From NCBI GenBank assembly GCA_032718475.1, contig JAUCBJ010002198.1, forward strand, positions 1-37,708: a stretch of DNA of 37,708 nucleotides. The letters are read 5' to 3'. The notes beneath the pieces are model-generated. The model was not told the DNA's origin. It was given only the letters and a program-made list of their open reading frames with translations, and did no database searches. Made by a program: the position numbers and the translations under genes. This DNA is from Nemertoderma westbladi. Its lineage: Eukaryota; Animalia; Xenacoelomorpha. This document shows positions 3,993 through 35,954 of the stretch, one piece after another (position 1 is the stretch's first letter; every line of letters begins with the position of its first letter).

Positions 3993-4080
3993 CCAGAGCC
4001 CATCTTTTCTCGACGTACTTCTTTATCATCTTATGGATGTACTCATCCTTCTCGGGGCTCCGTTTCAGGGTTTGCTTCAG

Positions 4081-5163: not shown

Positions 5164-6016
5164 GTCTACCGGTTTGGTGTCTACCAGCTATCTGTGGACT
5201 TGCAGTCCCCTGTGTCGCCGCATATGGTAGGGATTGTCTTAATTTTGGCAACGCATTTGCCGCCTTATGCTCTGGTTTCGGCCTGTTGTATTTGACCCTC
5301 GGCGGCTTCCCCAGACTATCCTCGCTGTAGACTGGGTCTGTGATTAACTCTGCTTCGTAGTTGAGGAAGTTCGACATTTCCTCTAGGCCCAGTTCCGCAC
5401 CTTTCTTCTCCCGGGTGGAGAAGGCGATCTTTCTCCATTTATTGCGCAGCCAGATCGGCAGTGCCTGCGCTATCGTTGTGATATTATTAGATGCGTTGAG
5501 TTCGTATGGCGTGTCCAGTGTTTTCAGCACGATTAACGCCTTCTCAACCTTGTTCGCGAAGTTCTTTATGCTAACAGGGTTATCCTGTAGGCCACCCGAT
5601 GTTATCCCCCTCAAGGTCTGCCGGATGATCTTGGCTGGGTGTCTGTATTCCCTGTCTAGGGCCCGCCATGCAATCGTGAAGCCACCCTCGATGCCCTGAT
5701 ACTGCCTCACAATGTCGTACGCTGGGCCTCCTGTATATACCTGTAGATATTTTAGGCACTCCGCCTGCGTCAGGTTCTTAGTTAATATCTTGTTGCTGTA
5801 CATGCGCCGGAATTGCAGGTATTCTTCTGGCCTGCTTCCGTCGAATTTAAATGGCTCTACAGGTGGTAGCTCGATTCTAGTCTTGAGCGCATCGAGAAGT
5901 GTCGCCATTCCCATTGCCTGTGCTTCCAATGGGTTCGAGGGATGCTGTACAGATTCTCCTGTTGGGTGCGGTCCACCCGTCGGGCCTGTTGACTTTCTTT
6001 GCGTCGGATATACCAT
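5129..6016 (-). pseudogene. Element A Gag core (DUF1759-like)
   Basis: LPPVEPFKFDGSRPEEYLQF...KYLQVYTGGPA...AWRALDREY...ALPIWLRNKW, typical of BEL Gag. Confidence 0.88.
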
Positions 6017-8837
6017 TGGGGGTAACGACCCCCTCCATATCTCCGTGTCGCAAGATCTGTTCTTGTCCAGGGGGTTCGATGTTCTTATTCCTGGTTGAGT
6101 TTATTGCTGACATTGTAATGGGGGAATGTCACCCTGCCCCCCCCCCCCCCACCCCACCGGTGTTATGTTTGGTACTGGGGTTGATGTTAATATATTGGGG
6201 CCCATACACCTATCCGCAATAACTCTCCCCTCCCCTGGATATATGTTATGTCCCGGCATGTGTCCTTCCGGACCGAAGTTTAACCTTCTCGAATAATCTA
6301 AGAAGTCCTCCCCGCAACTACCGTACTCTCTATCGGCAGCTATATCACGTCGGGAAGTTTCTCTCCGATCCCCCCTCCTGTTCTCGTCCTCGTACCGGTA
6401 CATTCTGTACCCCTCTCCCGGCGTATGATATATCTCGCCAGGCTGCGTCTCTCCGGGGCGACGGCAAACTCCCGGAGCCTACTACCGACGGCTTGCTATC
6501 CGTCCTCGCTCTCCGGTCGCTCATAGCGACGCTTCTTCTATTCTCTTCTCTCCTTCTCTCTTCAGTGTAGCGTCCCTGCTCATGAGATCTCTCGTCGACC
6601 TCCTGGTTAAACTCCACTGTTCTTCTTCCGTCTTCTGACTGGGCTCGACGTCTCGTCGCTCGCCCGCTCACGACGCCAACCTCCCTCTCTCTAGCCGGTT
6701 GGATGCTGCTGGGGATATTCGTAATCCCCCTACTATTCTCCGTCGCCGGGTGCTGCAGTTCACCTAACTCGCCCCGCGCATTATCCGCCGATGTCTGTGG
6801 GACATTCTCTGCCCCCCCCTTCTCGCCACTAATCTGCCGTGGTGGGGCGCCTGTAGCCCCCCCCCCCCCCCCACTCACCACCTAACACTTGACTATCTCT
6901 TGCTTCGCTTCTACGCCCCTCTCTAGTCGACACACTATCTCTACTGCGGCTGGTTCTATTCACCCCCGCATCTCCCTCTACCACTGCGTGGCCTTGCAGG
7001 CTCCCGTCGGGTTGACTCACCCCCGCTACTCCCTGTGTAGTAACTACGTGGCCTTGCAGGCTCTAGCTGGTTGGACCACCTACGTCTGCTGCGTTCACAT
7101 TAATAGCACCATTATCAACAACATCAATGCCTAAATTATTTAAATTATTTGAATTATGTTCTGAATTCGGATTATTATTTAAATTATTTTGTATATTTAG
7201 ATTGGAATCGGGAATATTTTGCTCGTTTGAATTAAAATTATTATTTAGATTATTCTGCATATTTAAATTTAAATTATTTGAATTACTCTGTATATTTGAA
7301 TTTAGATTGTTATTTGAATTATTTTCTATATCTGGATTAAAATTATTATTTTCGGGCAAAATATTATTTCCTGCAATGAAAGTTTGATTAGGGTTGTCTA
7401 CTACGGTACTATTAATATTAATGCCTTCTAACGTATTATTATTACTACCCCCCTCCCCCCCCCCCCCCCCACCCATACGATTACACCAGTCTTGGGTCTG
7501 TCGTCCGGTCCCTATAAGTGGGGTATTAACAAACGTTTCCATTACTTCTGGCTCCTTGTAAATACTACCCGAGCCAGCCTCACTCTCTGATAGCCCCAAC
7601 TGCACCAGTTCTAATCGGCGTTTTTGTTTGGCCTGATATTGCATAAGCCCCCTTAACCGGGCGTGCATATCATCCCGCATACATTTCCCAGCTCTCTCTC
7701 TCTCTCTCCATCCTCTCGCAGACTTTGGTCGGCCAACTCTGCCTCCCTTGCCTCCTGCTCTCTACGCTCACTCTCTACTTTTGCCTCTCGCTCTCTACGC
7801 TCATTCTCTACTTTTGTCTCTCGCTCTCTACGCTCGTTCTCTACTTTTGTCTCTCGCTCTCTACGCTCATTATCCACTCTCGCCTCCCGTTCCTCATGCT
7901 CTCTAAAGTTTCTCGCGACCCTCTCAGCCCTCTCTTTATTCTCTCTCGCCAACTCTCTCTCTTTCTCTAACAACGCAGTTCCCTCATCCAACTGCCTCTC
8001 TAATTCTTTCTGGTCTAGCGCCACCATGTCTAGTTGACACACCAGATCTATCTCTAACACCCTTCTTGCTTTCGCGGAGGATGTAGTGGACTTATCGCTC
8101 GCGACGGACTCCCATCGCCTCTCTGTCCTACTAACTTTCCCCCGCTTTCTGGGGTTCTCGCTAACCGACGAGACCGAATCCTCGGGGTTAACCTCGGGTT
8201 CGCCCTCGTGCGGATCTGCCCAACCCACTAACTTAACTCCCCTGGCATCCACTAAATACGGCCCTACGTACACTATTTCAGGCTCCCTAACCCCGAATTG
8301 CCACAGTTAGAATAGTTCGGTGGCGACCCCCCTCACTCTCTCATTCGCCAGTTCTCTCTGCCCAAAACGAACTAGATACCAAAAATGTTTATTCGACTCA
8401 TCTAGCCGCTGGCTCAACTTTCCCTGGTTTACCTTCTCTCCCTCTTTGGCCTCCTTTAACAATTTCTTAGTGGCGTTGTAGGCCCGTCGAAGCCGATCGC
8501 TGGTCCCGACGTCCTCTTCGCCGACATCTCCTCCTCTCCTGGTTCGGCGTCGTACCGGCGGCCCCACCATCGCCGTTCCGGTGGGCCGTCCGTCGCCCTC
8601 GGCCTGTGGCTGGCCGGCGACTTCGGTACTCCGACCGCCGTCGTGTGTCGACTCGTCCCTTCCTTGAGGTAAACGGCCGCCCTCCGCTTGGGCTACCGGA
8701 TCGTCCCTCGTCGGCGAATCCGGCGTCGCTGGCCGATACCGTCTCATCGTGGCCTCGCGGATCGTTTGGTTGGTGTCATCCGGGGTCCGCGGCGGCATTC
8801 TCTCTCCCTCTAATAATCGGGGTTCTCCTGTGCTCAT
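6017..8837 (-). pseudogene. Element A long low-complexity Gag N-terminus (coiled-coil and Asn-rich), broken into pieces
   Basis: ORF pieces 8307-8837, 7653-8273 (11-aa ENERRERETKV repeats), 7063-7680 (Asn-rich), 6345-6881 and 6101-6403. Several breaks lie near poly-C tracts. Confidence 0.7.
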
Positions 8838-8936
8838 CTTTGATAGCGTCTGGCAGTCACAGTTCAGTTCATGTGGAATTCATTGTGATGGGATCAAGGG
8901 ATCCCGACCGGATAAATCAGCTACGCGTCACCGTTT

Positions 8937-10091: not shown

Positions 10092-11401
10092 TGTTAAACA
10101 GGGGCGATCAGGAGCGCGCTATTACTACTGCACTGCTGCTAAACACAAAACTGCTTCTCACCGCTGGATGGCGCTAACCTGCCGTCCGCTAATAATTTTA
10201 CTAATTTTGTACGGCTCCTGCAAATTGCTTGTTCCTTTCTCTACCGATCACTCAATAGAGAGCTATCTGTTCGAATCTATGAGCCACGCGGGAATAACCA
10301 AAACAATAAACCCGAGACGGCTCCCTAGGCTACTTAAAACGAGTGTTAGAGGCTTACACTCAGAGTGTTCACTTATCGCCTAATCGCAAATACTGGGGTT
10401 CCCTAACGGAATGTATGAATGTGAGAATGTTTAAATAACTCAAAGTGTGACAGAATGTCCTATCGGGACTGGTACTGTGGGTCTAAACTTGCCTTCGGCT
10501 GGCTTTAGGCCAGCAACTTACTACTGCGTACTGAATACTGCTATCTAGCTTATTGCCCGCTATTTTCAAATAACCGCCCAGCGTGAATAGTTTACAGTAC
10601 TCCAAATAATTACTTTAACTACTCTCCGCTATGCTGCGTACAAATTCTTAATTTTACTAAATAATTACAGTCACAAATATGAAACAGCGTACTAATTACT
10701 AAGTGTTCCAGGAGCAATTCTAATTTATTACGCACCGGGTTACACTAGTACTGTAACAGCCTAATTACCGTATTATTTTGACCTAATCAGTAATTATTTA
10801 TTGTAAACTAAGAAATAGAAATCAATCAAGGGAAAAGGGCGCCTATCTAAGCATTCATAATTTAAGAATCAGGCACACTTTAGCAATAGACAAATCAGCG
10901 TAACAATCAATAGCCAATACTCTACAATAATCCTCTGATTGGTTCCCCAATCCGCGCTACCATTAGACCAACCTGGAAGCAGCTAGGCCAATAAGGAAGC
11001 CGGATTGTGAACCTATTCCCCTCCAGAATCACAAATTACCACCATATATGGAAACATTGGCGTTACTTAATTTAGCGGTACTAAAAGCACAGTACATACC
11101 ATCTAATTTAGCGCAAATATAATGGAAATTAAAGCAAATATACAGTTAGTCCTATTGATGCCAATAACAGCAAGATTACATCAAGGGTTTTATAGGAAAC
11201 TTGCTACTGTAGAACTATTTATTTATATTTCATTACAAAATTACATAGGTAGGGCTACATACTGTACAAAATGGATAAGATTCACGAATATGGGCATTTT
11301 ATTCTGCTTATCTAAATATGGTTGCGCGTCATTATAGCTTATCTAAATAATTATACTATATAACGGGCTAATAATGGTACACAGCGCCATATATCGTAAC
11401 A
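10092..11401 (-). repeat. 3' LTR of element B (~1.3 kb)
   Basis: Starts TGTTACGATATATGG at 11401 and ends TGTTTAACA at 10092. 10326-10921 matches 34028-34621 and 11247-11401 matches 35152-35306, about 97% by eye. Confidence 0.85.
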
Positions 11402-11410
11402 CCGCTCCAA
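11402..11410 (-). other. Short degenerate polypurine tract
   Basis: Minus-strand TTGGAGCGG directly abuts the LTR start TGTT. Confidence 0.4.
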
Positions 11411-11927
11411 GGGAAACAAGCAATGTTTCCCTCCAATTGTAGAAGAATATAGGGCGATGTAAACAAACAAAATAAAATTTCCTTCAAATAATCTAAATAA
11501 CTTGGTACTATAATAGTTCTAAATATTTACAAAATATTGCATATATATTGCATAATGGGTTTACATAGAAATCAAATTTACAAAATATTATCTCTCTCAC
11601 TGTTTGATGATTACTAAATACAAATTAAATTTACAAAAATATTGCTTTCTTTTACTACATATTGATTACTACATACAAATTAAATTTTTCAAAAATATTG
11701 CTTTCTAATAAAAAAGAAAACCCTGGCTAGGGCAGGTGAAAGGAGTAAGCCAAACCCGCAGGTTTGTCTCCCCAATCACCTCCTTTGCCTCTCTCATAAT
11801 ATAAAATTCCAAATGAATACGACTAGTGAATATGAGTCCAGTTGAATGTTTACTAAAAGGCTACGATATACATCAGAGCGACGATGATGTATATGTCTAG
11901 AGTCTGTCGCTCCGTGATACGATCGCA

Positions 11928-13512
11928 CTATCGACTTGCTCCTGGGTTCTTCAGGCTCGCTCCCCTCTTTCGCCCCCTCCCCAGATACACCAGTCTTCCT
12001 CCTGTCGACTCTGTTGACGGCGTCCGTGAGGCGTCACTTCCCGGAACCGGCGATGATGTTCCCTGGGCCCCGACTGTTTCTCGGCTGGTACTCCTCCCTC
12101 AGCCTAGTCCCATTTGTCGTGTTCCCGTGGTCGCCTCCACCAACTCCTCCTTCTGCAGTTGCACGCGCGCCTTTTTGGACGCCCCCTGTGCCCTTCGCTG
12201 CAGACGTTGTGCTTCAATAATAGAATGATAGTGGTCGTCCTTGACTTGACGCTTGTCCAGGACCCCTCCTTCTGGTACTTGCCGCGAGCTATGAACTCCG
12301 GCGGTTGTCGCTGTGGGCGCTGCGGTTCATTGCTCCTCTATCCGTTCGGTGGTCAATGACCCCACCGGTACATGAGTCAACAGAAACTCATTGCTGTATT
12401 GTATAGCTGCCATCCTCCAATCTCCTCTCGCGCGCACCACCTTTCTAGTCTCCGAAAATAGACTTTTGGTTATACAGTCGCAAATAGCAACAAAGTTCCA
12501 AGTATATTTATTGTCCATATTCAATTGTCTAAAATATTCTCGAACAACGATTACTCCAGTATTCTGCGGAAGGTCTTGAGCAGTTAGTATCAGCTCCTGA
12601 TATTGCGGTAGTGATTGCAAATAAGGCTCATACGCGACGTGTGAGGGATCTACCGCCCAGAACCCGTATCATGCTTTAAACGGCAACCAACGCATTTGTG
12701 CTTGGATGTGGTAATCAGCCACACCCTCCCACTTGTCTAACATTTCCCGGAGTAGGTTGGCGCTGTGGTTTTGGAAAGAATCATCACGCAGTTGACATTT
12801 TGTGCTACGATGTCCCTTTACCCCACAATAAATATCCACATTGAGAAATGAAGATGGTGCATGTATGGAATGAGTGATCTGTCTCGTTGCACCAACGGCA
12901 GACCTTATGCGCCGCCTCTACTACAGCGTCGCACGACTTTTGACTATGCCTTGTGCTGCCGCACAACTTGCATCTACGCGCTTGTGGAAACCAGGCCCTC
13001 TCATATATGAGGTCTCCAATCGGCTTCGCACTCCCTTCCTTCCCAATGTCTAAAACGATGTCGTCCTCTCCGGTCAGAGGTTGTCGATCCGGAACAAAGT
13101 AAACATCCTCGCCTTTGTCCTCTATCTCCAATATTTCCTCCCGCTTTCGTTTTGGATATGTCTTCTCCACCGGGAGATCCACTCCGAACACCTCTACTAA
13201 TGTCTCCGGCCAACCCTCTCTAACGGGTCTATCCGCCTCCAAGTGGACGGGAGTACCAAACCCGTGGGTTTGATTCCCGAACCACTTCGCCAAGGCCTCT
13301 GGTGTCAGATACTCCATCGACGGTTGGTCTCCCAAATCTCCGATGTTCTGTCGATATACTCCTTCGAATATCGCTCATCCTCTCCTAACCATCGATGTGT
13401 TCTCTAGCGATTTTTTGAAGAACGGGGTTAAGAAACGCTTCATCACGTTGGATTGGATTCCCCCTTTCGAGCGAACGTATTGATCTCCTCCGAACACCAA
13501 TGGATGACGCTT
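11928..13512 (-). pseudogene. C-terminal part of element B ORF3 with three CCHC zinc knuckles
   Basis: CKLCGSTRHSQKSC and CRWCNETDHSFHTC. Removing a 4-bp TTAT duplication near 12830 gives a third, CGYCGVKGHRSTKC. The frame then continues through TGA stops into 12327-12620 and a basic disordered tail ending near 11928. Confidence 0.75.
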
Positions 13513-18200: not shown

Positions 18201-20731
18201 GTAAAGGTGCTGCTTAAACGTCCTCCAATGTTTATGGTTGCCCATAAACTTCTGGGGTTGTTGCGTCGGCAGTCCTTGTCTAGCGGCAAACTTACCTATG
18301 TCTCTATGGGTTGCGTCGTTCCGGGTTAACAAATTATTTAGTTCTGCAGGGTTATTAAGTCTGGTCATTTCCCGGGGATTCATACTTACCTGCTCCGCGT
18401 CGGTCCTTCTTTCCTTCCGGTTTTGGGACTTCTGACGTCTCATTTCTTCCTCTTCATCACTCGAGTCTGTGTCAGTCCTCAGCGCTCGTGTTGGTTTATG
18501 TGCCGAAGCTCTGACCCAGGCCTCTTGTATAAATCTTTCCGCCGAATTTTCGAAGTTGGGATTATGGATCGTAGGGACGGGCGTTCTTACCTGAGGTCTA
18601 TGTGGTCTAATTCAGGCCTGCTAGGATTAGAATTACTTCTTACCTGGGCTGCTTCCTTTAACTGTAGGTTACTAAGCATGTCCGTTATAGGTTGCATGTG
18701 CGGCGATATAGCTTGCGCTAAACTGGCACTTAACTCCTCCCTCGTAATAAATTCCTGGCTAGGGTTCTGCTGTATTGTCGGCTCTATCTGAATAATCCGC
18801 TGTCTCTCATACGATCCCTCTTCCGGTTTAACCCGGAAGTTCTCCTTCGAACTGGGTCGGCGATCCGTCCGCGCACTCCAAACCTGTGGGTTCGGTTCGC
18901 CAAATACTCGGCCTGTCAGAGTTTCTTCTCTAAACTCCTCCTCCCGATAATAATTGCGTTGTAGCGCGCCGTCCTGATGGCGTGGATCCTGCGCAATGGG
19001 TGAAGCACTAATACCAACCGGCGTGTGATATGTAGAGAACGGTTTAGCGATCCGAGTACTCGTAATAGCTGGACCGGGTATAGGAATGCTGGTCGTCGTC
19101 GACTCGCGTATAGTCGGAGTTCTCGCCTCCTGTTCAGCCTTCTGCTGTGCGAACAGTTCTCGCAACTCGGTACCTACACTCGCCCCACATTCGTTGATCA
19201 TTCGCATCCCCTTCTCGGCGATTTCATTCGCCTTCCTGGTCCGTTCTTTGCTCTCTAGGTTTAGTCTCGCACTTTCCAACTGCGCCAACTTACGTTGTTC
19301 TTCTTCCCTCGCAAGTCTCGCTGCGCTCTCCTCTTCCAGGCGCGCCTTCTCTTCGTATAGCGCACGTTGCTCTTTTTCGATCTCGAGTTCTCGTTGCTTG
19401 CGCTCGCGTTCGAGTTGAAGCTTGCTTTCCTTCTGTTTGCATTTGAATTCATTGCGCTCGCGTTCGGCTTGTAGTTCGCATTCCTTGCATTCGCGTTCGG
19501 CTTGAAGTTCGCGTTCCTTGCGCTCGCGTTCCGCTTGCTCACGCTTACATATATCCTCCAACTCTCGCAGTTTCGCGTCTAACTTACGTGTGCGCTCCCG
19601 TTCCCGCTCGGCTTCCTTCCGTGCTTCCGATGCACGCAAAACTTCTGCCTGTTCTTCGTCTAGTCGGCGTCTTCTCTCCTCCGCCGAGTTCTGAGAAACA
19701 AGGGACCTGAGAATCGCCACTGTCTCTAGATGCATCGTCGGGTGGAGTTAACGTCCTCTGTTGGATGTTGTCCGTCGTCGGTAGCACCTGACCCGGTACC
19801 ACCACTCCAGTCTCCATCAGCCAGCTGGTGACTTCCCTCTGATACTTTCGCTCTTCCTTGTCTTGGGTCTCTTCCCACTCCACTAAGTTCCACCACTCCG
19901 TGTCGCTTACCTGAGGCGCCTGCGCTTGTGATGCCCATAGCAACCAGTTCTCTGTCCTAACTTTCCCGGAGTAGGTTGGCGCTGTGGTTTTGGAAAGAAT
20001 CAACACGCAGTTGACATTTTGTGCTACAATGTCCCTTTACCCCACAATAAATATCCACATTGAGAAATGAAGATGGTGCATGTATGGAATGAGTGATCTG
20101 TCTCGTTGCACCAACGGCAGACCTTATGCGCCGCCTCTACTACAGCGTCGCACGACTTTTGACTATGCCTTGTGCTGCCGCACAACTTGCATCTACGCGC
20201 TTGTGGAAACCAGGCCCTCTCATATATGAGGTCTGCAATCGGCTTCGCACTCCCTTCCTTCCCAATGTCTAAAACGATGTCGTCCTCTCCGGTCAGAGGT
20301 TATCGATCCGGAACAAAGTAAACATCCTCGCCTTTGTCCTCTATCTCCAACATTTCCTCCCGCTTTCGTTTCGGATATGTCTTCTCCACCGGGAGATCCA
20401 CTCCGAACACCTCTACTAACATCTCCGGCCAACCCTCTCTAACGGGTCTATCCGCCTCCAAGTGGACGGGAGTACCAAACCCGTGGGTTTGATTCCCGAA
20501 CCACTTCGCCAAGGCCTCTGGTGTCAGATACTCCATCGACAGTTGGTCTCCCAAATCTCCGATGTTCTGTCGATATACTCCTTCGAATATCGCTCATCCT
20601 CTCCTAACCATCGATGTGTTCTCTAGCGATTTTTTGAAGAACGGGGTTAAGAAACGCTTCATCACGTCGGATTGGATTCCCCCTTTCGAGCGAACGTATT
20701 GATCTCCTCCGAACACCAATGGATGACGCTT
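15219..20731. repeat. 5.5-kb near-identical direct duplicate of 26359-31871 (offset 11,140): RT, PR, Gag and an ORF3 fragment
   Basis: Identical ORF translations, e.g. 16914-18107 = 28054-29247. Only about two SNPs seen (19136/30276 and 20668/31808). Confidence 0.97.
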
Positions 20732-22858
20732 CAAAACTCGCGCAATGATATCCGCTACTAAACAAGTTACCGTATTCGACTCAAGCACCAAATAATATTG
20801 CAGCAACGCACGGGGTGGCGCGCAGATGTTCCAATATACTAATGCTTGCCGCTTGAAGTGGGATTTGAACTCCGCTCCCGGTGGCGTGTTATATTCACCA
20901 TACGCCTCCTCGTATTTCTTTTGCGTCTTTAACTTGAAGTCCCAGTTGTATAACAAATGCGCTATAAAGCCCATACCAGTCTTGGCAGAGTTGGGATACT
21001 CCCTATAAATTCCAATATCCTGTGCCCATAGCAACAATAGGTTGGTGTCGACAAACGGTCTCAGGAATCTATCCTCCAAATCCATCATGGCGTTGAAGTC
21101 GCTCTCCAAATCACTCTGGACTCCCGATCCTACCTTGACGTAATCCTGGTTGAGAATCGCCTCTGTAACTTTCTTGGGTAGCATCCTGGCGTCGATACGC
21201 TCTGCTCCGTGCATACCTCCTCGCCTGCATACCTCGAAAATCTGTTCCCTGGGATCCTTCCCCCGCCGATATTGCGTCGTTATGATGGCCTCCGGTCTCT
21301 CTCGGTCTGCCCTCACGCGCATAAATACGTGAGTCACACCATCGGCCGCGCGAATTTGAATGCACTTACTAGTTATGCACTCTTGATGGGACCCTCCCTC
21401 GTTGTTGTAGAACATCACGCGCCAATCCTGTAGGGATTCCTCCGTCTTTCTCCATTGACGCTGGATCTCGTCGGATGGGGTCCACATGCGCTCAATATCC
21501 TTGTGGTCATCGTATTGGTTATAGGAACCCTTCCTCCTCAGCCACGCCTGATCTACCTCCTCGTCATCCGGAAATGCAGCCACCGCGACCCATACCTTTA
21601 TGTACTTGTCCAACCAACCAAATAATTTGCTCTCCTTCCCTGGAGCTCCAATCTTATCTAACGTGTCGTAATCTGTTATCTGCATCGGGATGTCACGCAA
21701 GAACTTCGAGCATAAAACTTCCCGTAAGCAGTCGACGTTCCAATGATCCGACGACATCACCATCGGCAAGAATCGAATGGCTTCTCGTGACTCCAGGTGA
21801 TCTACCAATATCGCAGGTTCGTTGCCGTCGGAATAATACACCGGTCGGGGTTGAGATACAGCCTGTGGAACAAATCCAGTCACTCTCCTAGTCTCCTCCT
21901 GATGTCTATCCTCGGTCTTATTATACTCCGCTATCCTCTCTTCGAATAACTGCTTCGCTTTCGCCACTCACTCCTCCTGTCGCAACGCATCTATATCGTC
22001 CTGATGCTCAGGCGTGAGATTTCTCGCTCGGTGAGGCGAAGTAAACGTGGTCCAGGGACTCGAGAGCTCCAAACCCGCGGGTTTGGTACCCGAGTCCCGT
22101 GCCGCTTCGTACCGCGCCTCTAAGTCCTTACAGGCTCGGTATAACGAAATGGCCACCGCCGTCTCTATCAAAGCGGGTGTCGAACAGGGTTTAATCTCCG
22201 TATACGGATCTAAAGTCATAACGGTCGGCATAATGGGTCTCGGAGGTCGCTTTCCGCTAAAGTCGATACTGATCATCGGGTTGCTCATCGGGTAACCTCC
22301 CTCGTTGTATCTAAGAAACTGGTGAGCTTGACATCGCGTTAATATCGGTTCAGGATGCTGCTCATTCAGTCGATCGGGAATCGCTATGTCTTGCTTATTC
22401 ATGCATTCACCGCATTTGTAGAACAACTTGTATACACTGAAAACCTTTGGCGTCTCCTGATCCTCGCCTCGAGTCCTCCGGTAAAGGTGCATTCCGTCGA
22501 ATTGATCCCGGACTGCAGGTAGCGGTTCGTCGTATCGTAAATACATGTTCATATGGTACAGACGGGCGATTTCCTCATCTGGGTCCGCGCTAATGTCGCA
22601 TACATCAAGGGCAAAGTCGTAGGGATAACGAGTGCGATACTCCTTCCGTAGAACCTCCATGCGGTCTCCCAATGCTCGCATCCGTTCCCTCCTCAACTCC
22701 TTCTCATACGTGTGCTTATACTTCCCGTTTAACTCCATCACCGATCTCCCATGGTAGTAAACATTCGAATCTTTACACCCGGGTCGGGCGAATGGTAGTT
22801 CTGCCTCCTCTCTGGCGGTGAACCCTCTCCTCAGTTGCGCTCTCATTTCCTTCTCCAT
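19963..22858 (-). pseudogene. Element B ORF3, N-terminal and central part, with a DEDDy (WRN/EXD-like) 3'-5' exonuclease-like domain
   Basis: ORFs 21968-22858, 20594-21967 and 20300-20554 share one frame and are separated by single stops. Motifs VMFYNNEG, CIQIRAADG, LPKKVTEAILNQDYVKVGSGVQSDL, FVDT, TGMGFIAHLLY and YW..PP..QYYLVLES follow WRN-exo motif order. Confidence 0.72.
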
Positions 22859-23616
22859 TTTGCCGCGTATATATACATATATCCAATTGGTCCGTTACGT
22901 AACTAATTACACTGTGGGTAAATCAGTTAGATGATGCTGAAGGACAGACATCCCGAACCCCCCAGCCATCTTCCAGCAGTTCAGGTTCGGCTCTCTAGAT
23001 CCCGTCTCATTCCTAATTACCTTCTAACCTATTCCCATGCATAGCGCAAAAACTTCAGATATAAACTGGCCGTGACCAACTCACTTTTTGATGCCCAAAC
23101 TACTCCCCAATACTTGTACTAGACTACAGTAGGTAGAAAGGACAATAGCTATGGCGTTCGACTATACCAAACCCGCAGGTTTGATAATTGAACACCTCAC
23201 TCCACTGCAAACTACTGAGTGGGGTCTGTGTAAGCCTCTGGTGCTACTAACCTTTAGCACCTTGGCTGTTGTACTGTTGGCACCAATATGTGGAAGTTAC
23301 TGAACTCAATTTACACTCCTACATAATATAGCCATCACCATGGTTTCTAAATGCTATTTTCCAAGCTTCACGACTTTCAAATTACTGTATTTCTATAGAC
23401 GAATTCTAGAATGCGTCTATATGCAGCGTTTGGAATTGTCTTGGGTTCACTTCTAATTTTTAAAATTTCTAATTTTCCGAACATTTTATGAAAATAAAAT
23501 TTTGTTTTGATACCCACCAGACAAATTCTCAACGCAAATCACCACAAACCCGCTCCTATGCATTTCCGAGTATTTGCATACAAGGAATGCATACAAAGTG
23601 AATTTGTGTTCCAACA

Positions 23617-25494
23617 CTAATTTTGGTTTGAGGCAGAAGACAAATTATAGTCTCCTGTCTCGATGCGTGTCTCCTCTAATAACACGATATCTTGGACCGG
23701 TATGTCCAAGGTGTGTAAACCATTAGTTTTACACTTCTTTTGGTTTGGACACTTGCACCTTATTTTTACAGTGATGGTGCGCACTATATTTTGTACGTCC
23801 GGGTGTATGTGCAAGATGACTCCGGTCTCCCAATACTTTCTCTTGACAACTGGTTCGGTTATTAATACGTAGTCTCCTCTTTGGAGGCTCCGAACTGTTT
23901 TGTACCACTTGGATCTGGTGGATATTGTGGGAAGATAATATTCCCGCCAATATTCCCAGAATGTGTACGCAACGAATTGAGTTATTTTCCAGCTCTTTCG
24001 ACTATATAGGTCGGCACTAATGGGTTCTGATGCCGGCACAAGAAACGCTGGACTCTGCATTAGCAAATGATTCGGCGTTAATGCAACACCATCTGGCAAC
24101 ATAGCTATCAGCCTCGAGTTCAATGTAGGCTCGATTTCGATGAAAGCTGTTACCAGCTCGTCGTCGGTAAGTTGTTTGTTTACAGGCAATGTTTTAGCAA
24201 TGTCCTGCTTTATGGAGCAAACCAAACGCTCCCAACTTCCTCCTCTCCTGGGACTTTCTGGAGTGTTAAATTTCCACTCCACTCTTTGCGGCAAAAGTGC
24301 TGCAGAGATTTCTCTATTCTGCGCCGCCCTATGAGCCACGTTCAACTCGCTATTCCCTCCGACAAAGTTTGTACCCTTGTCGGAGTAGAACGCCTTTACT
24401 AGTCCTCTCCTGGCCATAAATCTCTTTAAGGCCAGGAGCAGAGATTTGGTTGACATGTCTGCCACACGCTCTATATGTACGGCTCTACTAGCCATACATA
24501 TCAGTAGCAGGCCCCATCATTTGTGGGTCAGCTGTCCACTCTTTGCCTCAATCGGACCAAAACAGTCCACCCCTGTATTTGTAAAGGGTGGGTCATATGC
24601 CTGCACTCTCGCTTCCGGGAGTTCAGCCATCTCCTGTTCCAATACTCTGGCGTTCACCCTCTTGCAAACCAGACAGGCATCGTACATAGTACCTACTGCC
24701 CTGCTTGGCTGCAATAGAATGAATCGCTGTCTCGCTGCCGACAAACAGTGTAACTTTCCCGCGTGATGCAACCTCTTATGTATATCCCATAGAATCGCTC
24801 TTTGCAATTCTATTGGGTGACTAGGGATTATCACTGGGAACCTAAACTGTGAGTTTATGTCGACAGTCTGGATTCTCGATCTATGACAAATCAAACCCTT
24901 ATGGATTAATGGGCTCCATTTTCTAAGGGGTTTATAGAGAACTGGTCGTTGAGCCGATAATAGATAGAATTCTTTAGGGAAGGCACACATTTGATAATGC
25001 TTCAAATGTTTTTATTCCGCTTGATCAATCTCATCCTCTGTCAGAGGTTGTTTCAATCTCCGAATTCGCTCGCTATTAGCGCTCGTTTGTTCTCCTAAAT
25101 GTTCCGAATGTTTTAAACAAAGGTACGAAACGTATCGGCTTAACCACGCAGTTCTTTTACAAATTGTCAGCCAAGAGGCGGACGAATTTAGTAATTTGTC
25201 ATAAATACTACATGGCTCTAATGTCAGCGACGGTTGCCCGCTAGCTAACGGAAGTTTCGAATCCAAACCCACAGGTTTGGAAACCGTAGGCTCCATTTTG
25301 TCGGTCATTTTCTGTCCGTCACTTACCAATTGTGACCCTTGTGTAGTCTGTAAGGGTGGTTTTATGTCATAACTTACCCTTCCAGACCTTGTAGTCACGT
25401 ACGTCTCTTCGTCTGACAGGTCTCCGGGCCGCTCCAATGACTCTTCAGGCCGCTCCAATGACTCGTGTTTGGCTTTCGACTTAGACTTCTGCAT
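23617..25494 (-). pseudogene. Element B integrase and DUF5641-like C-terminus (stops and frameshifts)
   Basis: HKRLHH...CLVC Zn finger; VDCFGP, SDKGTNF, GSWERLV; LTPNHLL; WREYYLPT...KW. Confidence 0.93.
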
Positions 25495-27343
25495 CCATCG
25501 GCATCGGATTAGTTACTATCTTCAGTCGCTCTGGCCAATGCTCCTGTGTCCTCGTTAGAAAATCAGGTCCATGCAACCAAAACTCCTGGGACTCCTCCTG
25601 ACAGAATTCCGCCGGGATAGCACATCTCGAAGTTATGTCGGCCGGGTTCAACACTCCCGGACAATGTCTCCATTGTTCCTTCGTCGAGAAGTCGATGATC
25701 TGAGCGCGTCTGTTGGCCACAAATGTCTTTAGTGCAATATTATCAGCTGCAATATACACTAACACTAAGGATGCGTCCGTCCAATAGAATAAGGTCAATG
25801 TCATCTCTAACTCCTCTATTATCTGCTTACTTACCTCGACTGAGACTACTGCCGCCTGCAACTCTGCACGAGGGACAGTCATGTATTTGACCGGCATTGT
25901 CTTTGATCTAGAAGTCACAAAGGTCGTCTCAAACTTGTCCTGACTTACCTTTCGGCAAAGGTAGGCTACCATACCAAAGCCGGTGTCACTTGCGTCACTA
26001 AATAAGTGCAGTTCTAAATCAGCTGGAAATACCAGCTGATTCGGAAAGTAGGAGCAGGGTACATCTATATTTTTCAATAGATGTAACTCGGCTTCCCACT
26101 CTCTCCCCTGCTTTGCATGTATGGGGGATATTGGCTCATCCCACTCTAGGTCGGACAACCAAATTTTCCTCATACATATTCGTGCCTGTAATATTACCGG
26201 GCTGATAAAGTTCATCTGGTCAAATAGTCTACTCATTGTCGATAAGCAGATTCTCTTAGTCAAAACTTTGTCCGGACTACTGGGCTCAAACCTAACTCTC
26301 ACCTGGAACTTATCCGTGTTCGGATTCCAAGCGAGTCCCAGTACTCGCGCCATGGGGATGGGTTCTACCCCCAATTCAATGTCTCCGCTCCCGCGATCTT
26401 TCACCGGGAACGATTCTAATAGGGCCTCCGAGTTGGTGGTGAACTTGGTCAGTGGAAAACCCCCTGTAGCCAAGCACTCCTGTAGGCTGTGAGCCACTTC
26501 TATGGCTTGTTCCGCTGTGTCCTTGGACACCAATCTGTTGTCCATGTAGAAGTTTCTCAGGATGGACTCGATAACGTCTACTGGATACTTACCAATCTGG
26601 GCCGTTGCCGTTTTCTTTAGAACAAACAGCGTGCCGTTGGGACTATCGCGGGCACCGAATATCCTGACATACATCTGGTATGTAACCACTGGGCCGGATA
26701 GGTCTTCATTCTCAAACCAGAGAAATCGGAGACTATCCTGGTCCGCCTTGCAGGCTCTTACCTGGTGAAACATCGCCTCGATGTCGCAAGTAAAGGCGAA
26801 TCGCCGCTGTTTAAAGCGTAACAGTATCCTTATTAAGTAGTTATTTAAGTTGAGACCATCCATCAACTCTGAATTCAGGGACATACCTCTATAGACTGCT
26901 GCGCAGTCATTGACTACTCTGACCTTGTCTGGTTTGTCAGGGTGAGTCACATAGTGGTGTGGGAGGTAATAAGTCTGGTCCGCCACTAAGTCTGGGTCCT
27001 CTACCTTCCCAGCAAATCCCTTGGCAAAATAGTTGTTTATCTGGGCGCAATACTTCTCCCTAACGTCTGGATTCTTCAGCAACCAAGCCCTTACTCCGTT
27101 CAATCTTTTCAAAGCCAAGTTGTAGTTGTTCTCCAACTTAAGAGGTTGTCGACGCCACAACATTCCAACTTCAAAATGTCCTGTCGGTAGCAGACGTATG
27201 GTATCTTCCATCATCTCCAGCGACCGTTTCTCGTCAGTGGACATGGTTAGGTCATATCCACCGGGTTCCATTGCGTCCCTATCCAGCCATTCGACGGTTC
27301 TAGCTCCTGTCTCGAGGTCCTGGCGTATCAATTCCTTCTGCAA
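25481..27343 (-). pseudogene. Element B RT and Pao RNase H
   Basis: YYLPHHYV, KVRVVNDCAA, CDIEAMFHQV, LRFLW, FYMDN (YxDD changed to YxDN), VLGLAW, LHLFSDAS, VPRAELQAA, YWTDA, NPADITSR. Confidence 0.95.
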
Positions 27344-27358
27344 CTCCTCCTCACTGTA

Positions 27359-30300
27359 TTAGAAAATGTCGAGGTCTCGATATTTAGCCACCTGACCCTC
27401 CACTATGTCGGTATAAGTCAAAATGTTACTCAAATAAGTGGCGTGGGCCGCTGAACCAGACCCACGGGTCTGATAACAGTACTCCTCGGGTTCACTATCT
27501 GTCTGGTCGTTGTAGAGTGGTTCCGACAATCTAACATTATCGGGAATCAACTCCTCGTCCGACTCGCTAACGTCACTATAGTGGTCAATGCAGGTTCTCC
27601 TAAACTCATCTATGTCTGGTGGTTCTACTAACGGTGGTTGAGTTATAGGCTGTAATCCGTCGCGTCTATCCTTTGGCTTTTCACCACCTGTAAACTCATA
27701 AGACATGGGTACTCGTGTATACCAACCTAATATAGTCCTATGGGCGTGTGGTCCATTTACATGCGGCTCAGCTGGTCTCGTTTCCCATATTTGGTGCACA
27801 ATCAGCTGTTCTGCTCCAATTAACATAGACACATTCCTATAACCTACCTGGTATCTCGGTATTCTGAGCTTGTCAAAATACCCCTGTGCTATGGGACTCA
27901 TCGGTGGCACCTTACCTAACTGCCTGCCGAACCCTTTCATAGCTAGACACTTGAATCCGTCCAATGGCAACGCTCTCCGTTCTTGGCGAGTGTGCTGGTC
28001 TCTCGGGAGTAGGGAGTCTAGTTCTACCGAAATCTTGTGTCCCTTGAGGTCCCCTACCCCCCGTGCATGGACTTTAACTCTATTTGGATCTCCTCAGCAT
28101 CCTGGAAGCTGGAAATGGCTCTCGACACTTCCTCGTCTATATATGATAATGTGGACGCAGTGTCTAACATCACATATATTCTCTTTGATCCCTTGTCTCC
28201 GGTAAGTTTCACCGGAATCACGCTGAATATTTCCGACGTGGCCGATGATGAATACGTCCGCGAGCTGGTCGACGAACTATCCGCGGTGAACCCTTGGCAG
28301 GTCACCTCTCTCGCGCTTGCCTCACCATCCTCGTCCGACGAACCTGGTTGATACCCATCATCCTGGATGCCGGTATATGTATTTCTTCTTATTGTTACAG
28401 GATCTCTGCCCCCCTTCCTTTGAGGATTTCTCTGTAAGTAATGGTCCGTTGTGGTATGGAAATCTGCATGTAGCAACTTGTGATGTAGTCTGCCGCACTC
28501 CATGCATCCGTCCTCGCTGTTCGGGCACTGGCGCCATACGTGACCTGGCGCAAGACATGCCCAACAGGTGTCCAACGTCTGCACTTGAATTATTATCTGT
28601 TCCGAAGTTAACTCTTTGAACCGTCTGCAACTGTCTAACTTGTGGTCGTCCGATCTTACCTCTTTTTGTAAGCAGAATTGGCAACCTACAAATCCATCTG
28701 GCAACTCCTGTTGCTTTACCTTAGGTCTATCTGACCGCTCACCTGACCATACTCGCGAGTCTGATCTAAAGGCAGGGGTACTCGAATTATATCTGTCTAC
28801 TGAGTTAAAAGTCACAGTGGTCCTGTCATCGTCAAAACTTACCATTGACTTACCGGTAACAAATTTAGACTCCCTCATATTCTCCTCTGAGAAGTTTGAT
28901 TTCATCTCTGCTACCGCATCTGTGGCTATCATGTCATGGATGTGTTGAAGTGTCAACACCTTACCTTGACCCTCTAACTTATTCTCTAATTTGCGCCATT
29001 TCTGTCGGTAACGCATGTTTAAACGTCTTATTATGCTCTTCAAAACTTCAGCGTGATCACCATGATGAGGTAGATTCACCGTCCTCAAGATGTCTAATGC
29101 ATTCGAAATAGCGTTCACTAAGTTCAACAGCTCTAACGGAGTTATAATCATTCCGCCCTTACCCAAGTCTTCCACTATCGACTGTGCCATCTTGGTTTTA
29201 TTCCCGTAGATGTCGCTAAGTGTCTTCATAGCTAATTCAAAGCTCATTCATTAGCTCTTTCATTGCCGACGAAGTTATCAGCAATGGCTCTAGGTTCTCG
29301 ATGGAGCATCTGTAGCAGATAGTTGAACTTCTCGTTGGGAGTAAAGGTGCTGCTTAAACGTCCTCCAATGTTTATGGTTGCCCATAAACTTCTGGGGTTG
29401 TTGCGTCGGCAGTCCTTGTCTAGCGGCAAACTTACCTATGTCTCTATGGGTTGCGTCGTTCCGGGTTAACAAATTATTTAGTTCTGCAGGGTTATTAAGT
29501 CTGGTCATTTCCCGGGGATTCATACTTACCTGCTCCGCGTCGGTCCTTCTTTCCTTCCGGTTTTGGGACTTCTGACGTCTCATTTCTTCCTCTTCATCAC
29601 TCGAGTCTGTGTCAGTCCTCAGCGCTCGTGTTGGTTTATGTGCCGAAGCTCTGACCCAGGCCTCTTGTATAAATCTTTCCGCCGAATTTTCGAAGTTGGG
29701 ATTATGGATCGTAGGGACGGGCGTTCTTACCTGAGGTCTATGTGGTCTAATTCAGGCCTGCTAGGATTAGAATTACTTCTTACCTGGGCTGCTTCCTTTA
29801 ACTGTAGGTTACTAAGCATGTCCGTTATAGGTTGCATGTGCGGCGATATAGCTTGCGCTAAACTGGCACTTAACTCCTCCCTCGTAATAAATTCCTGGCT
29901 AGGGTTCTGCTGTATTGTCGGCTCTATCTGAATAATCCGCTGTCTCTCATACGATCCCTCTTCCGGTTTAACCCGGAAGTTCTCCTTCGAACTGGGTCGG
30001 CGATCCGTCCGCGCACTCCAAACCTGTGGGTTCGGTTCGCCAAATACTCGGCCTGTCAGAGTTTCTTCTCTAAACTCCTCCTCCCGATAATAATTGCGTT
30101 GTAGCGCGCCGTCCTGATGGCGTGGATCCTGCGCAATGGGTGAAGCACTAATACCAACCGGCGTGTGATATGTAGAGAACGGTTTAGCGATCCGAGTACT
30201 CGTAATAGCTGGACCGGGTATAGGAATGCTGGTCGTCGTCGACTCGCGTATAGTCGGAGTTCTCGCCTCCTGTTCGGCCTTCTGCTGTGCGAACAGTTCT

Positions 30301-31102
30301 CGCAACTCGGTACCTACACTCGCCCCACATTCGTTGATCATTCGCATCCCCTTCTCGGCGATTTCATTCGCCTTCCTGGTCCGTTCTTTGCTCTCTAGGT
30401 TTAGTCTCGCACTTTCCAACTGCGCCAACTTACGTTGTTCTTCTTCCCTCGCAAGTCTCGCTGCGCTCTCCTCTTCCAGGCGCGCCTTCTCTTCGTATAG
30501 CGCACGTTGCTCTTTTTCGATCTCGAGTTCTCGTTGCTTGCGCTCGCGTTCGAGTTGAAGCTTGCTTTCCTTCTGTTTGCATTTGAATTCATTGCGCTCG
30601 CGTTCGGCTTGTAGTTCGCATTCCTTGCATTCGCGTTCGGCTTGAAGTTCGCGTTCCTTGCGCTCGCGTTCCGCTTGCTCACGCTTACATATATCCTCCA
30701 ACTCTCGCAGTTTCGCGTCTAACTTACGTGTGCGCTCCCGTTCCCGCTCGGCTTCCTTCCGTGCTTCCGATGCACGCAAAACTTCTGCCTGTTCTTCGTC
30801 TAGTCGGCGTCTTCTCTCCTCCGCCGAGTTCTGAGAAACAAGGGACCTGAGAATCGCCACTGTCTCTAGATGCATCGTCGGGTGGAGTTAACGTCCTCTG
30901 TTGGATGTTGTCCGTCGTCGGTAGCACCTGACCCGGTACCACCACTCCAGTCTCCATCAGCCAGCTGGTGACTTCCCTCTGATACTTTCGCTCTTCCTTG
31001 TCTTGGGTCTCTTCCCACTCCACTAAGTTCCACCACTCCGTGTCGCTTACCTGAGGCGCCTGCGCTTGTGATGCCCATAGCAACCAGTTCTCTGTCCTAA
31101 CT
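27359..31102 (-). pseudogene. Element B Gag (coiled-coil, core, three BEL-type Zn knuckles) and aspartic protease
   Basis: CQFC..H..C, CWACLAPGHVWRQC and CMECGRLHHKLLH; protease VMLDTAS; MLIGAE; HRTILGW. Frameshifted. Confidence 0.9.
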
Positions 31103-31871
31103 TTCCCGGAGTAGGTTGGCGCTGTGGTTTTGGAAAGAATCAACACGCAGTTGACATTTTGTGCTACAATGTCCCTTTACCCCACAATAAATATCCACAT
31201 TGAGAAATGAAGATGGTGCATGTATGGAATGAGTGATCTGTCTCGTTGCACCAACGGCAGACCTTATGCGCCGCCTCTACTACAGCGTCGCACGACTTTT
31301 GACTATGCCTTGTGCTGCCGCACAACTTGCATCTACGCGCTTGTGGAAACCAGGCCCTCTCATATATGAGGTCTGCAATCGGCTTCGCACTCCCTTCCTT
31401 CCCAATGTCTAAAACGATGTCGTCCTCTCCGGTCAGAGGTTATCGATCCGGAACAAAGTAAACATCCTCGCCTTTGTCCTCTATCTCCAACATTTCCTCC
31501 CGCTTTCGTTTCGGATATGTCTTCTCCACCGGGAGATCCACTCCGAACACCTCTACTAACATCTCCGGCCAACCCTCTCTAACGGGTCTATCCGCCTCCA
31601 AGTGGACGGGAGTACCAAACCCGTGGGTTTGATTCCCGAACCACTTCGCCAAGGCCTCTGGTGTCAGATACTCCATCGACAGTTGGTCTCCCAAATCTCC
31701 GATGTTCTGTCGATATACTCCTTCGAATATCGCTCATCCTCTCCTAACCATCGATGTGTTCTCTAGCGATTTTTTGAAGAACGGGGTTAAGAAACGCTTC
31801 ATCACGTTGGATTGGATTCCCCCTTTCGAGCGAACGTATTGATCTCCTCCGAACACCAATGGATGACGCTT
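31103..31871 (-). pseudogene. Third copy of the ORF3 zinc-knuckle fragment, wedged between Gag segments
   Basis: Matches 19963-20731 and 12744-13512. Confidence 0.9.
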
Positions 31872-34027: not shown

Positions 34028-35306
34028 TAGGCTACTTAAAACGAGTGTTAGAGGCTTACATTCAGAGTGTTCACTTATCGCCTAATCGCAAATACTGGGG
34101 TTCCCTAATGGAATGTATGAATGTGAGAATGTTTAAATAACTCAAAGTGTGACAGAATGTCCTATCGGGACAGGTACTGTGGGTCTAAACTTGCCTTCGG
34201 CTGGCTTTAGGCCAGCAACTTACTACTGCGTACTGAATACTGCTATCTAGCTTATTGCCCGCTATTTTCAAATAACCGCCCAGCGTGAATAGTTTACAGT
34301 ACTCCAAATAATTACTTTAGCTACTCTCCGCTATGCTGCGTACAAATTCTTAATTTTACTAATTAATTACAGTCACAAATATGAAACAGCGTACTAATTA
34401 CTAAGTGTTCCAGACTGCGCAATTCTAATTTATTACGCACCTGGTTACACTAGTAACAGCCTAAATACCATATTATTTTGACCTAATCAGTAATTATTTA
34501 TCATGAACTAAGAAATAGAAATCAATCAAGGGAAAAGGGCGCCTATCTAAGCATTCATAATTTAAGAATCAGGCACACTTTAGCAATAGACAAATCAGCA
34601 TAACAATCAATAGCCAATACTTAACAGTTAGCAGCTTGCAGTGTAAAACACGAAGACCTCTCCCAGGTGCATATAGGCTTCCTAACTAAACCAATACCTG
34701 CCCCCCAATACTACAAAATAGAGACAAAATCTGGATCGTCAGCCCCCTAATTACTGTCACGGCTACTGGACTTCAGTCTACACTGCCCTGCTTCCGACCG
34801 CAACGGTGACCCCCCCCCGCCAGCGTTGCTCCGCCTTTGAACCCTCTGCACTCCCTTCGTCGCTACCCCCCGGTGCGCCCACCGCGCCTACCGGTACCTT
34901 AGCCCTCCATTAGAATGAATAGCTACCGTAGAGGCGCATGCAATCACAAACAGTCTGACAGTCTAAAGAAAATCCCATGGGATTATCGCATCTTAAATCA
35001 CATAGAACCATTAATCAAAAGGGTAGAAATTATAGTTCGAATTGTAATTTGCAGTAACCATCAAGATTGATTAAGAAACACAGCAAAGAACAGAGCAGAA
35101 ATTACAAATTTGCGAATTATTGCAAGAAACAAAATATAAGAAAGATTACTGAGGTAGGGCTACATACTGTACAAAATGGATAAGATTCACAAATATGGAT
35201 ATTTTATTCTGCTTATCTAAATATGGTTGCTCGTCATTATAGCTTATCTAAATAATTATACTGTATAACGGGCTAATAATGGTACACAGCGCCATATATC
35301 GTAACA
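34028..35306 (-). repeat. 5' LTR of element B (inner end missing; middle differs from the 3' LTR)
   Basis: Two blocks are homologous to the 3' LTR. 34622-35151 has no match there, and the equivalent of 10092-10325 and a PBS are absent. Confidence 0.85.
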
Positions 35307-35500
35307 GCACTCGACAGCTCGACTAAATCTGTAAATCAAAAGCAACAATTCCCCACCGGCCCGGCACACAAACCGACACAGGTTCGTTATCTTCACTGGG
35401 TCCCCGTCTATGGATTAAGTTTCCCACAAACGTCACATCGGCAACCAGTGTCGAGTCCTTCAAGCATCTCGTGAAAAATTACTATTTAGATTGTCTGATT
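35307..35500 (+). mobile_element. Decayed LINE ORF2 C-terminus, right half
   Basis: Translates to TGSLSSLGPRLWIKFPTNVTSATSVESFKHLVKNYYL, the SFSxxGPxLWNxLP...SxxxFK tail of CR1/L2-group LINEs. Confidence 0.75.
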
Positions 35501-35908: not shown

Positions 35909-35954
35909 GAACGCTGGGTTCTTATGTTCATTTCACCCCCACCAAATCTATTTA

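Follow-up and report, generated by a model that had tools for sequence, protein, structure and literature searches.

A predicted DEDDy-type exonuclease with zinc knuckles encoded by a third open reading frame of a BEL/Pao retrotransposon

What kind of protein is encoded by a long additional gene lying behind the integrase of a BEL/Pao retrotransposon, and what could it do for the element? This question is raised by the window (the whole stretch of 37,708 nucleotides of Nemertoderma westbladi DNA analysed here), for which a preliminary description had reported a same-strand frame following the integrase stop from 22858 to 19963, with a 3'-5' exonuclease domain and zinc knuckles. The frame, hereafter ORF3, reads as claimed, after a spacer of 758 bases.

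The host element and the extent of ORF3

Judged by its Pao-type RNase H/peptidase A17 region, the DUF5641 domain after the integrase and its domain order, the host element is a BEL/Pao LTR retrotransposon, with Pfam matches in pol to PF05380 (E 3e-35), PF18701 (E 6e-17) and PF17921 (E 3e-6). The gag-PR-RT-RH-IN order between LTRs is kept in the block 31102-23617 (minus strand); the locus is a scrambled composite in which the window's own element copy is broken by stops and frameshifts, and the element would amount to approximately 15.9 kb once unscrambled. The LTR homology ends without CA, and neither a clear primer site nor a target-site duplication was found. A TGG-type primer site is absent after the end of the LTR homology (the nearest TGG lies ∼60 bases further on), and no LTR-leader pairing of at least 10 bases adjoins the LTR end, for which reason self-priming was dropped. 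A second, distant BEL/Pao family is also found in the window (RT identity 35%).

The ORF3 frame is joined to gag at 19962, a consequence of this scrambling. Its three in-frame stops lie upstream of a 4-base duplication near 20046, which had been noted before and splits the third knuckle. The same duplication occurs in a second, partial copy, which is identical to the main copy at 765 of 776 bases (13512-12737) and through which the frame continues to about 11928, as had been proposed, with three further stops. For the described gene of ∼1,235 residues, the length (∼1,236 codons) is a sum over two partial copies and not that of a single one; the last ∼270 codons and their stops are read in the window only. 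The window's own ORF3 copy is dead. An envelope identity was rejected, in agreement with the preliminary description, as 19-residue hydropathy revealed no membrane segment, peaking at 1.37 within residues 1-936 and at 0.67 within the C-terminal portion.

Table 1. Features of the element and of ORF3 in the window. Residues are numbered from M1 = 22858.
Feature	Positions	Strand	Basis
5' LTR, starts TGT; extent set by homology to 3' LTR	34028..35307	-	homology
Third partial ORF3 copy (knuckle region), within 5.5-kb duplication	31097..31871	-	homology
gag-protease region, interrupted by breaks; has coiled coil, CCHC knuckles and DTA motif	28054..31102	-	read from sequence
pol, BEL/Pao type: RT, Peptidase_A17/RNase H region, Integrase_H2C2, DUF5641; stops and frameshift	23617..28093	-	ORF list and Pfam search
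Spacer between integrase stop and ORF3 start: 758 bases, 13 ATGs, indel-rich among copies	22859..23616	-	copy comparison
ORF3 main copy, about residues 1-965; three stops and frameshift	19963..22858	-	ORF reading
N-terminal 480 residues; C-x2-C...C-x2-H pattern; no family match in searches	21419..22858	-	ORF reading
Predicted DEDDy-type 3'-5' exonuclease domain	20740..21470	-	ESM Atlas features, P0001 relative, profile
ExoI candidate	21418-21398	-	sequence motif
ExoII acid, residue 583	21112-21110	-	alignment
ExoIII Y689...E693	20794-20780	-	sequence motif
CCHC zinc knuckle 1, CX2CX4HX4C, residue 890	20150..20191	-	sequence motif
CCHC zinc knuckle 2, CX2CX4HX4C, residue 914	20078..20119	-	sequence motif
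CCHC zinc knuckle 3, split by frameshift in main copy	20014..20059	-	copy comparison
Second partial ORF3 copy, about residue 710 to end, then 3' UTR and 3' LTR; G/R/S/T-rich tail	11928..13512	-	overlap with main copy
3' LTR, starts TGT; first 171 and last 599 bases common to 5' LTR	10326..11402	-	homology

ORF3 in other copies of the family

Other copies were seen as contigs of public DNA runs, of which X1-X3 come from two studies. With 2067 (X1), 3965 (X2) and 2787 (X3) contigs, the integrase end, the spacer and ORF3 are covered in 30 of 30 bins, and ORF3 is therefore present in other copies of the family, as the preliminary description had expected. The window's three stops are replaced in 98.8-100% of the run depth, and the 4-base duplication is missing from 50% (X1), 97% (X2) and 81% (X3) of it. 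Among the best 12 of 22 rows, a single indel falls in the 2.9-kb ORF3 versus 11 in the 0.76-kb spacer. The variant tables hold the best-supported rows of longer lists (31 and 433 further rows). Non-neutral evolution, a check proposed earlier, is indicated by one diverged contig (X6, itself with a 1-base deletion), in which 24 of the 29 listed changes are synonymous versus an expected fraction of 0.20-0.33 (p < 1e-7). Since synonymous changes are in excess and indels few in other copies, the ORF3 frame is more than a chance one. Collectively, these observations support that ORF3 belongs to a high-copy BEL/Pao family and is under purifying selection.

The putative exonuclease domain and its relative P0001

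The window domain has no match in Pfam, NCBIfam, PHROGs or the PDB, PDB sequence searches of the exonuclease region returned chance rows only, Pfam makes no call on the window knuckles, and an HRDC domain was not detected in ORF3. Its sole match among 1.84 billion proteins is P0001 (E 3.6e-4; 41 of 162 residues identical), which lies on a 9,449-base contig. P0001 shares the layout of ORF3, an exonuclease and a triplet of knuckles in identical order, even though the query did not include the knuckles. The three CX2CX4HX4C knuckles described for ORF3 were indeed recovered, two intact and the third split by the frameshift; those of P0001 (two canonical and one CX2CX3HX4C) match retroviral nucleocapsid structures (E 1e-4). 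Homology of the post-knuckle segment with P0001 was dropped, as 302 of 3000 shuffles scored equally high.

Against a profile built from 12 bacterial DEDDy domains, P0001 reaches 16.6 bits, a score attained by none of 300 shuffles; its ExoI and ExoII fall in register, and its ExoI is a normal D-x-E. The window domain obtains -0.5 bits on this profile, with 8 of 300 shuffles equally high, and the window piece outscores 500 of 500 shuffles when P0001 is added. The PF01612 score of P0001 is 11.9 bits versus a curated cut-off of 23.6, and the window domain has none. ESM Atlas assigned 25 of 30 matches to PF01612 clusters both for the window domain (0.90) and for P0001 (0.94, 171 shared features), scores near the level reached by 4-10% of shuffled proteins. 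Single-sequence models of the two proteins were too poor for use (pLDDT 33.6 and 34.5), and Foldseek and VIA-align on the low-confidence window model gave no nuclease among the matches listed, a negative that does not count against the fold. Word-index protein searches gave no match for the window piece at 251-800 and 801-2285 residues, and P0001 itself only for P0001 at 356-1134 residues. No related locus was found in viral contigs (queries A1, RT region and N-terminus), metagenome contigs (P0001 and window piece) or plasmids (P0001 domain). The DEDDy domain of the preliminary description is thus supported indirectly, through P0001 and the language-model features, and lacks a Pfam, PDB or structural match; by the former two lines, it very probably has a DEDDy RNase H-like fold.

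All motifs listed earlier were found in frame: VMFYNNEG (residues 481-488, from 21418), CIQI (499-502), GSGVQSD (577-583), FVDT (602), GMGFIAHLL (628), W676 and QYYLVLE (687-693). The ExoIII motif needs correction, the announced YxxxD being YxxxE in both the window and P0001; the X6 contig retains the YxxxE, and other residues stand in place of the small ones that normally separate the tyrosine from the aspartate. The ExoII acid (residue 583) aligns to the ExoII D of the bacterial members and of P0001, within a stretch that may resemble the LP...KVG.G...D of the WRN/EXD/mut-7 exonucleases; no EXD1, EXD2, mut-7 or WRN sequence came up in the PDB and protein searches. The first ExoI position is non-acidic in the window copy and carries another base in ∼99% of the X1 and X2 depth, where the codon, read by hand, is acidic. 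CpG decay, suggested earlier as the cause, agrees with this and fits 15 of the 41 listed private sites of the window copy.

The register of ExoI is disputed between methods. MAFFT places it on acid-free segments, at residues 525-529 in one alignment and ∼510-515 in another. The best match within the domain for the beta2-beta3 hairpin is residues 500-511, and the family D-x-E therefore lies 14 residues ahead of the hairpin Q, the spacing seen in the bacterial members, which favours ExoI at VMFYNNEG. Despite the top hairpin z-score, a further, degenerate exonuclease around residues 337-365 scored -3.7 bits and was not accepted. We consider a four-acid active site D-E-D-E (residues 485, 487, 583 and 693) reasonably likely, and class the predicted domain as a DEDDy-like variant rather than a canonical one, with the tyrosine and an acid retained in ExoIII.

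Possible roles and known systems

Since BEL/Pao elements are described as having a single ORF or two, with env a rare addition (PMC3118150), ORF3 is not part of the core machinery. In a virus, innate sensing seems to be suppressed by a dsRNA-digesting DEDD exonuclease (PMC3429428), and by analogy a counter-defence role of ORF3 can be envisaged. We tentatively favour, at slightly less than even confidence, that ORF3 is an accessory 3'-5' nuclease countering host RNA silencing. Its product would likely be a catalytically active 3'-5' exonuclease of DEDDy type, with the three knuckles binding single-stranded RNA while the putative nuclease chews back element RNA ends or small-RNA precursors that otherwise feed silencing. 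Because 13 ATGs precede its start, expression would be from a spliced or subgenomic RNA. To our knowledge, few counter-defence proteins are known from animal retrotransposons.

The same domains might instead act within the particle, where they would remove misincorporated bases or trim the primer RNA, the end of the genomic RNA or the 3' ends of the cDNA, with nucleocapsid-like knuckles. The P0001 knuckles are compatible with such an active replication nuclease, as are the length of the unscrambled element compared to the usual 4.2-10 kb (PMC3118150), the missing TGG-type primer site, and the end processing proposed for rotifer ORF3s (PMC5408684) and Dada transposons (PMC3706591). Yet the majority of BEL/Pao elements need no gene of this kind to replicate (PMC3118150), pairing of at least 10 bases next to the LTR end is lacking, and the LTR end is uncertain, so that the primer site may only seem to be missing; we regard this role as unlikely, if worth keeping in mind. 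Exonuclease folds that are catalytically weak or dead and kept for RNA binding are known from Egalitarian, EXD1 and Maelstrom, and ORF3 could similarly be weak or dead, escorting element RNA or sequestering silencing factors. EXD1 and Maelstrom are also named in PMC5408684. The E in ExoIII with its altered neighbours and the two acid-free ExoI alignments would fit a dead fold; the hairpin register, the ExoII acid and Y-x3-E kept in both proteins at 25% identity, and the normal ExoI of P0001 argue against it, and we hold it to be improbable.

It is very unlikely that the domain falls outside the DEDDy exonucleases altogether, or that ORF3 is a functionless insert that hitch-hikes or decays. A direct family, structure or close-sequence match is indeed missing, and the link consists of one relative and of Atlas scores close to those that 4-10% of shuffled proteins attain; against this stand the synonymous excess and the few indels, the knuckle triplet shared with P0001 beyond the query, and the window piece outscoring every shuffle once P0001 is in the profile. 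Extending the favoured counter-silencing reading, the element may belong to an old, undescribed branch of giant (∼16 kb) BEL/Pao elements with their own D-E-D-E exonuclease-triple-knuckle family suppressing piRNA/siRNA silencing, the window's second family and P0001 being further members, which is a speculative and rather doubtful scenario.

An exonuclease precedent in BEL/Pao was not found in the literature searched (some phrases likely miss the spelling BEL/Pao; Repbase, supplements and subscription papers were outside its scope), and the word exonuclease is absent from PMC3118150 and PMC13524379. Env-carrying BEL/Pao elements (Roo, and mosquito elements with Chuviridae-like glycoproteins) also have a third ORF, but these are membrane fusogens (PMC13524379), whereas ORF3 has no membrane segment. 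Dada DNA transposons likewise carry their own DEDDy domain, there within the transposase and with DEDD kept (PMC3706591). Within the PF01612 family (RNase D, the Pol I proofreading domain, WRN, EXD, mut-7/Nibbler), RNase D-type domains can be aligned via P0001 to the ORF3 domain in the ExoII region, at the P-x-x-D-T motif and at the ExoIII tyrosine; the ORF3 domain differs in being below every curated cut-off, in inserts after beta3 and before ExoIII, and in its ExoIII E, which would extend the range of DEDDy active sites. Being a natural domain without breaks, that of P0001 is suited to an activity and substrate assay.

The closest parallel is found in bdelloid rotifers, where the Juno and Vesta LTR retrotransposons and Athena/Terminon elements carry a DEDDy-exonuclease ORF3 (PMC5408684), so that the rotifer precedent named in the preliminary description is a published one; the nematode precedent named with it was not found among the literature matches listed. 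The rotifer ORF3s and the present one are non-envelope third ORFs after pol that lack a membrane segment; they share an RNase D-like DEDDy domain, here a predicted one, and an altered acid set, DEED in the rotifers (PMC5408684) and a predicted D-E-D-E here. The rotifer ORF3s have no clear link to copy number, and their intragenomic evolution shows no departure from neutrality (PMC5408684). By description, the present ORF3 is set apart by its BEL/Pao host, its ∼1,236 codons, its 480-residue N-terminus and its three CCHC knuckles, knuckles being mentioned for gag and pol, not for ORF3, in the accessible part of PMC5408684. Seen beside the published rotifer cases, ORF3 suggests that LTR elements have repeatedly taken up 3'-5' exonucleases for what may be a shared purpose.

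A degraded gene in a scrambled element

On the sequence evidence, ORF3, the extra gene downstream of pol, is a real, selected and very divergent predicted exonuclease-knuckle gene of a BEL/Pao family, with indirect support for its fold. It begins 758 bases after the stop of the integrase, in an element whose pol carries Peptidase_A17, Integrase_H2C2 and DUF5641 domains (Pfam). The main copy is interrupted by three stops and, after them, by a duplication of 4 bases near 20046 that divides the third knuckle; it runs into gag at 19962 as a fusion. The rest of the frame, to about 11928, comes from a second, partial copy, which matches the main copy at 765 of 776 bases and contains another three stops. 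The GC3 of ORF3 (0.58) is like that of both pol (0.56) and gag (0.53). Every motif named in the preliminary description was found in its place by a residue check; ExoIII, given there as YxxxD, reads Y-x3-E. Its remark that a clear TM segment is lacking agrees with the hydropathy profile of ORF3, in which no membrane segment was found, and the product is soluble, with three CCHC knuckles.

Self-comparison of the window revealed duplications of 5.5 kb (99.96% identity) and 2.5 kb (99.55%), as well as four copies of the gag block. The gag, pol and ORF3 blocks meet at sharp junctions (gag-ORF3, pol-gag), and either recombination between copies or the assembly of repeats could have produced this scrambled locus. 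Unscrambled, the element sums to ~15.9 kb of non-redundant blocks; an excerpt of PMC3118150 gives 4.2-10 kb as usual for BEL/Pao. The two LTRs agree over the first 171 bases (94%) and over the final 599 (96.5%), while their middles are unrelated, both starting near GTAAT and ending near AG, as introns may. No pairing of the leader with the LTR was found close to the LTR end, and no TGG-type primer site adjoins the end of LTR homology.

A second, distinct BEL/Pao family (RT identity 35%) lies in the same window. Some 640 bases after its integrase stop (865), beyond a spacer with short direct repeats, an ORF starts; the 75 residues of it that fall inside the window show a weak likeness to the N-terminus of ORF3 (score 51, 2 of 2000 shuffles). 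Because the window ends there, that likeness is no more than suggestive.

Coordinates of features in and around the two BEL/Pao elements
Feature	Position	Strand
LTR-bounded composite of BEL/Pao element	35307-10326	minus
LTR middle, ~520 bases	34622-35141	
LTR middle, ~315 bases	10922-11236	
Leader, AT-rich	34027-33677	
Nested duplications	12737-33564	
ORF3, main copy	22858-19963	minus
C-x2-C-x23-C-x2-H pattern in unassigned N-terminal part of ORF3, possible zinc site	22320-22415	minus
ORF3 residues 337-365, hairpin-like	21770-21850	minus
17-base sequence, potential short hairpin, in spacer before ORF3	23167-23183	
Same 17-base sequence, in 3' UTR after ORF3	11750-11766	
Degenerate tandem array outside 5' LTR, units ~70-77% alike	35945-37531	
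Second BEL/Pao family	865-8880	
Second family, ORF start	~224	minus
Second family, very long gag region with Asn-rich and charged repeats	6100-8880	minus

Family copies and selection on the frame

Part of the stretch is present in four of the seven listed sequencing runs. Three public runs from two studies (X1, X2 and X3, the last two from one sample) yield 2067, 3965 and 2787 contigs, respectively, on 19900-24000, whose cover extends over all 30 bins, integrase end and ORF3 included; as no single piece spans the whole stretch, the integrase-ORF3 linkage rests on overlapping short contigs. The preliminary description had raised absence from other copies and neutral evolution as grounds for doubt: the copies in X1-X3 do cover ORF3, and a synonymous excess is seen among the listed sites of a contig from run X6. 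This contig, at 20740-21440, has 37 differences in all and a 1-base deletion peculiar to it; 23 of the 29 listed differing sites are at third positions and 24 are synonymous (0.20-0.33 expected, p < 1e-7). Run X4, labelled as another organism, contributed two pieces without gaps, 749 and 741 bases long and ~90-92% identical.

At the three ORF3 stop positions, 98.8-100% of the read depth has another base, which in each case opens the codon, and the 4-base duplication is missing from 50%, 97% and 81% of depth (X1, X2, X3). Among the best 12 of 22 indel rows, the spacer accounts for 11 and ORF3 for one. Of 41 listed sites at which the window copy stands alone, 24 are non-synonymous, 14 synonymous and three at stops, and 15 of the 41 are of CpG type; these lists hold the best-supported sites, beyond which come 433 further rows for 19900-24000 and 31 for 20740-21440. 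It follows from these counts that purifying selection has preserved the frame in the family and that the window copy decayed after insertion.

Predicted exonuclease domain and proposed active site

Direct searches with the window ORF3 (Pfam, NCBIfam, PHROGs, PDB sequences, word-index protein searches) gave no match. With residues 1-852 as query, phmmer over 1.84 billion representatives returned one protein, P0001 (648 aa, E 3.6e-4, query residues 559-720), a single-member cluster from a contig of 9,449 bases. Its exonuclease region, linker and three knuckles follow the order of ORF3, though the query was without knuckles. Against a profile built from 12 bacterial domains (RNase D and Pol I), P0001 reaches 16.6 bits (0 of 300 shuffles), and the D-x-E of its ExoI and the D of its ExoII fall in register with this DEDDy profile; its Pfam score of 11.9 bits is under the cut-off, and in the ESM Atlas it scores 0.94, with PF01612 in 25 of 30 hits. 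The window piece scores -0.5 bits alone (8 of 300 shuffles as high) and 6.1 bits once P0001 is added (0 of 500), so that the DEDDy assignment of ORF3 is transitive, carried through P0001. PF01612 clusters in 25 of 30 ESM Atlas hits for the window domain (~0.90) serve as a lead. Alignment-free structure prediction of the ORF3 domain and P0001 yielded no usable model, and fold searches on the poor window model were uninformative.

The ExoII D and the ExoIII Y-x3-E are common to ORF3 and P0001, and the X6 contig has no listed change in ExoIII. MAFFT sets ExoI at residues 525-529 or ~510-515 (two alignments), both without acids. A beta1-beta3 profile on residues 448-572 has its best match, a weak one, at 500-511 (4.3 bits), which would place the ExoI strand at 481-487 with normal spacing; this register would leave an inserted strand and helix ahead of the LP motif, where P0001 too has a helical insert. 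An ExoI scan left 481-487 outside the top six because the window copy is without the first acid. At that position ~99% of depth differs from the window copy (X1 10420/10484, X2 6215/6258), and the X1 and X2 codon, read by hand, is acidic. The active site is proposed, with reasonable though not strong confidence, to be D-E-D-E. Elsewhere, residues 337-365 resemble a DEDDy beta2-beta3 hairpin with the top z-score, yet at -3.7 bits, possibly by chance or as a trace of a second domain.

Putative role and known systems

ORF3 would encode a 3'-5' exonuclease guided by its knuckles to single-stranded RNA, and may be expressed from spliced or subgenomic RNA, since the spacer contains 13 ATGs. Because BEL/Pao elements normally do without ORF3, we tentatively favour a putative role in counter-defence against small-RNA silencing, somewhat short of an even chance. 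We rank this above the processing of primers or cDNA, which seems rather unlikely, and above an RNA binder that does not cut, which appears slightly less likely still; that ORF3 is no exonuclease at all we hold to be improbable.

Excerpts of the rotifer literature describe DEDDy ORF3s in Juno and Vesta elements and in Terminons (PMC5408684; repeated in PMC5718144, PMC6431247, PMC6338049), with a motif altered to DEED and no activity shown there (PMC5408684), in contrast to the D-E-D-E proposed for the BEL/Pao ORF3. Dada transposons have a DEDDy domain (excerpt of PMC3706591). Passages of a 2026 review of host-transposon coexistence mention exonucleases on the host side only (PMC13269885), and those of PMC7998251 held nothing relevant. 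Literature searches, some weakened by the spelling of BEL/Pao and with Repbase and supplements outside their scope, found no BEL/Pao element with an exonuclease. A DEDDy-type ORF3 is already known in retrotransposons; a BEL/Pao carrier appears new within the literature that these searches covered.
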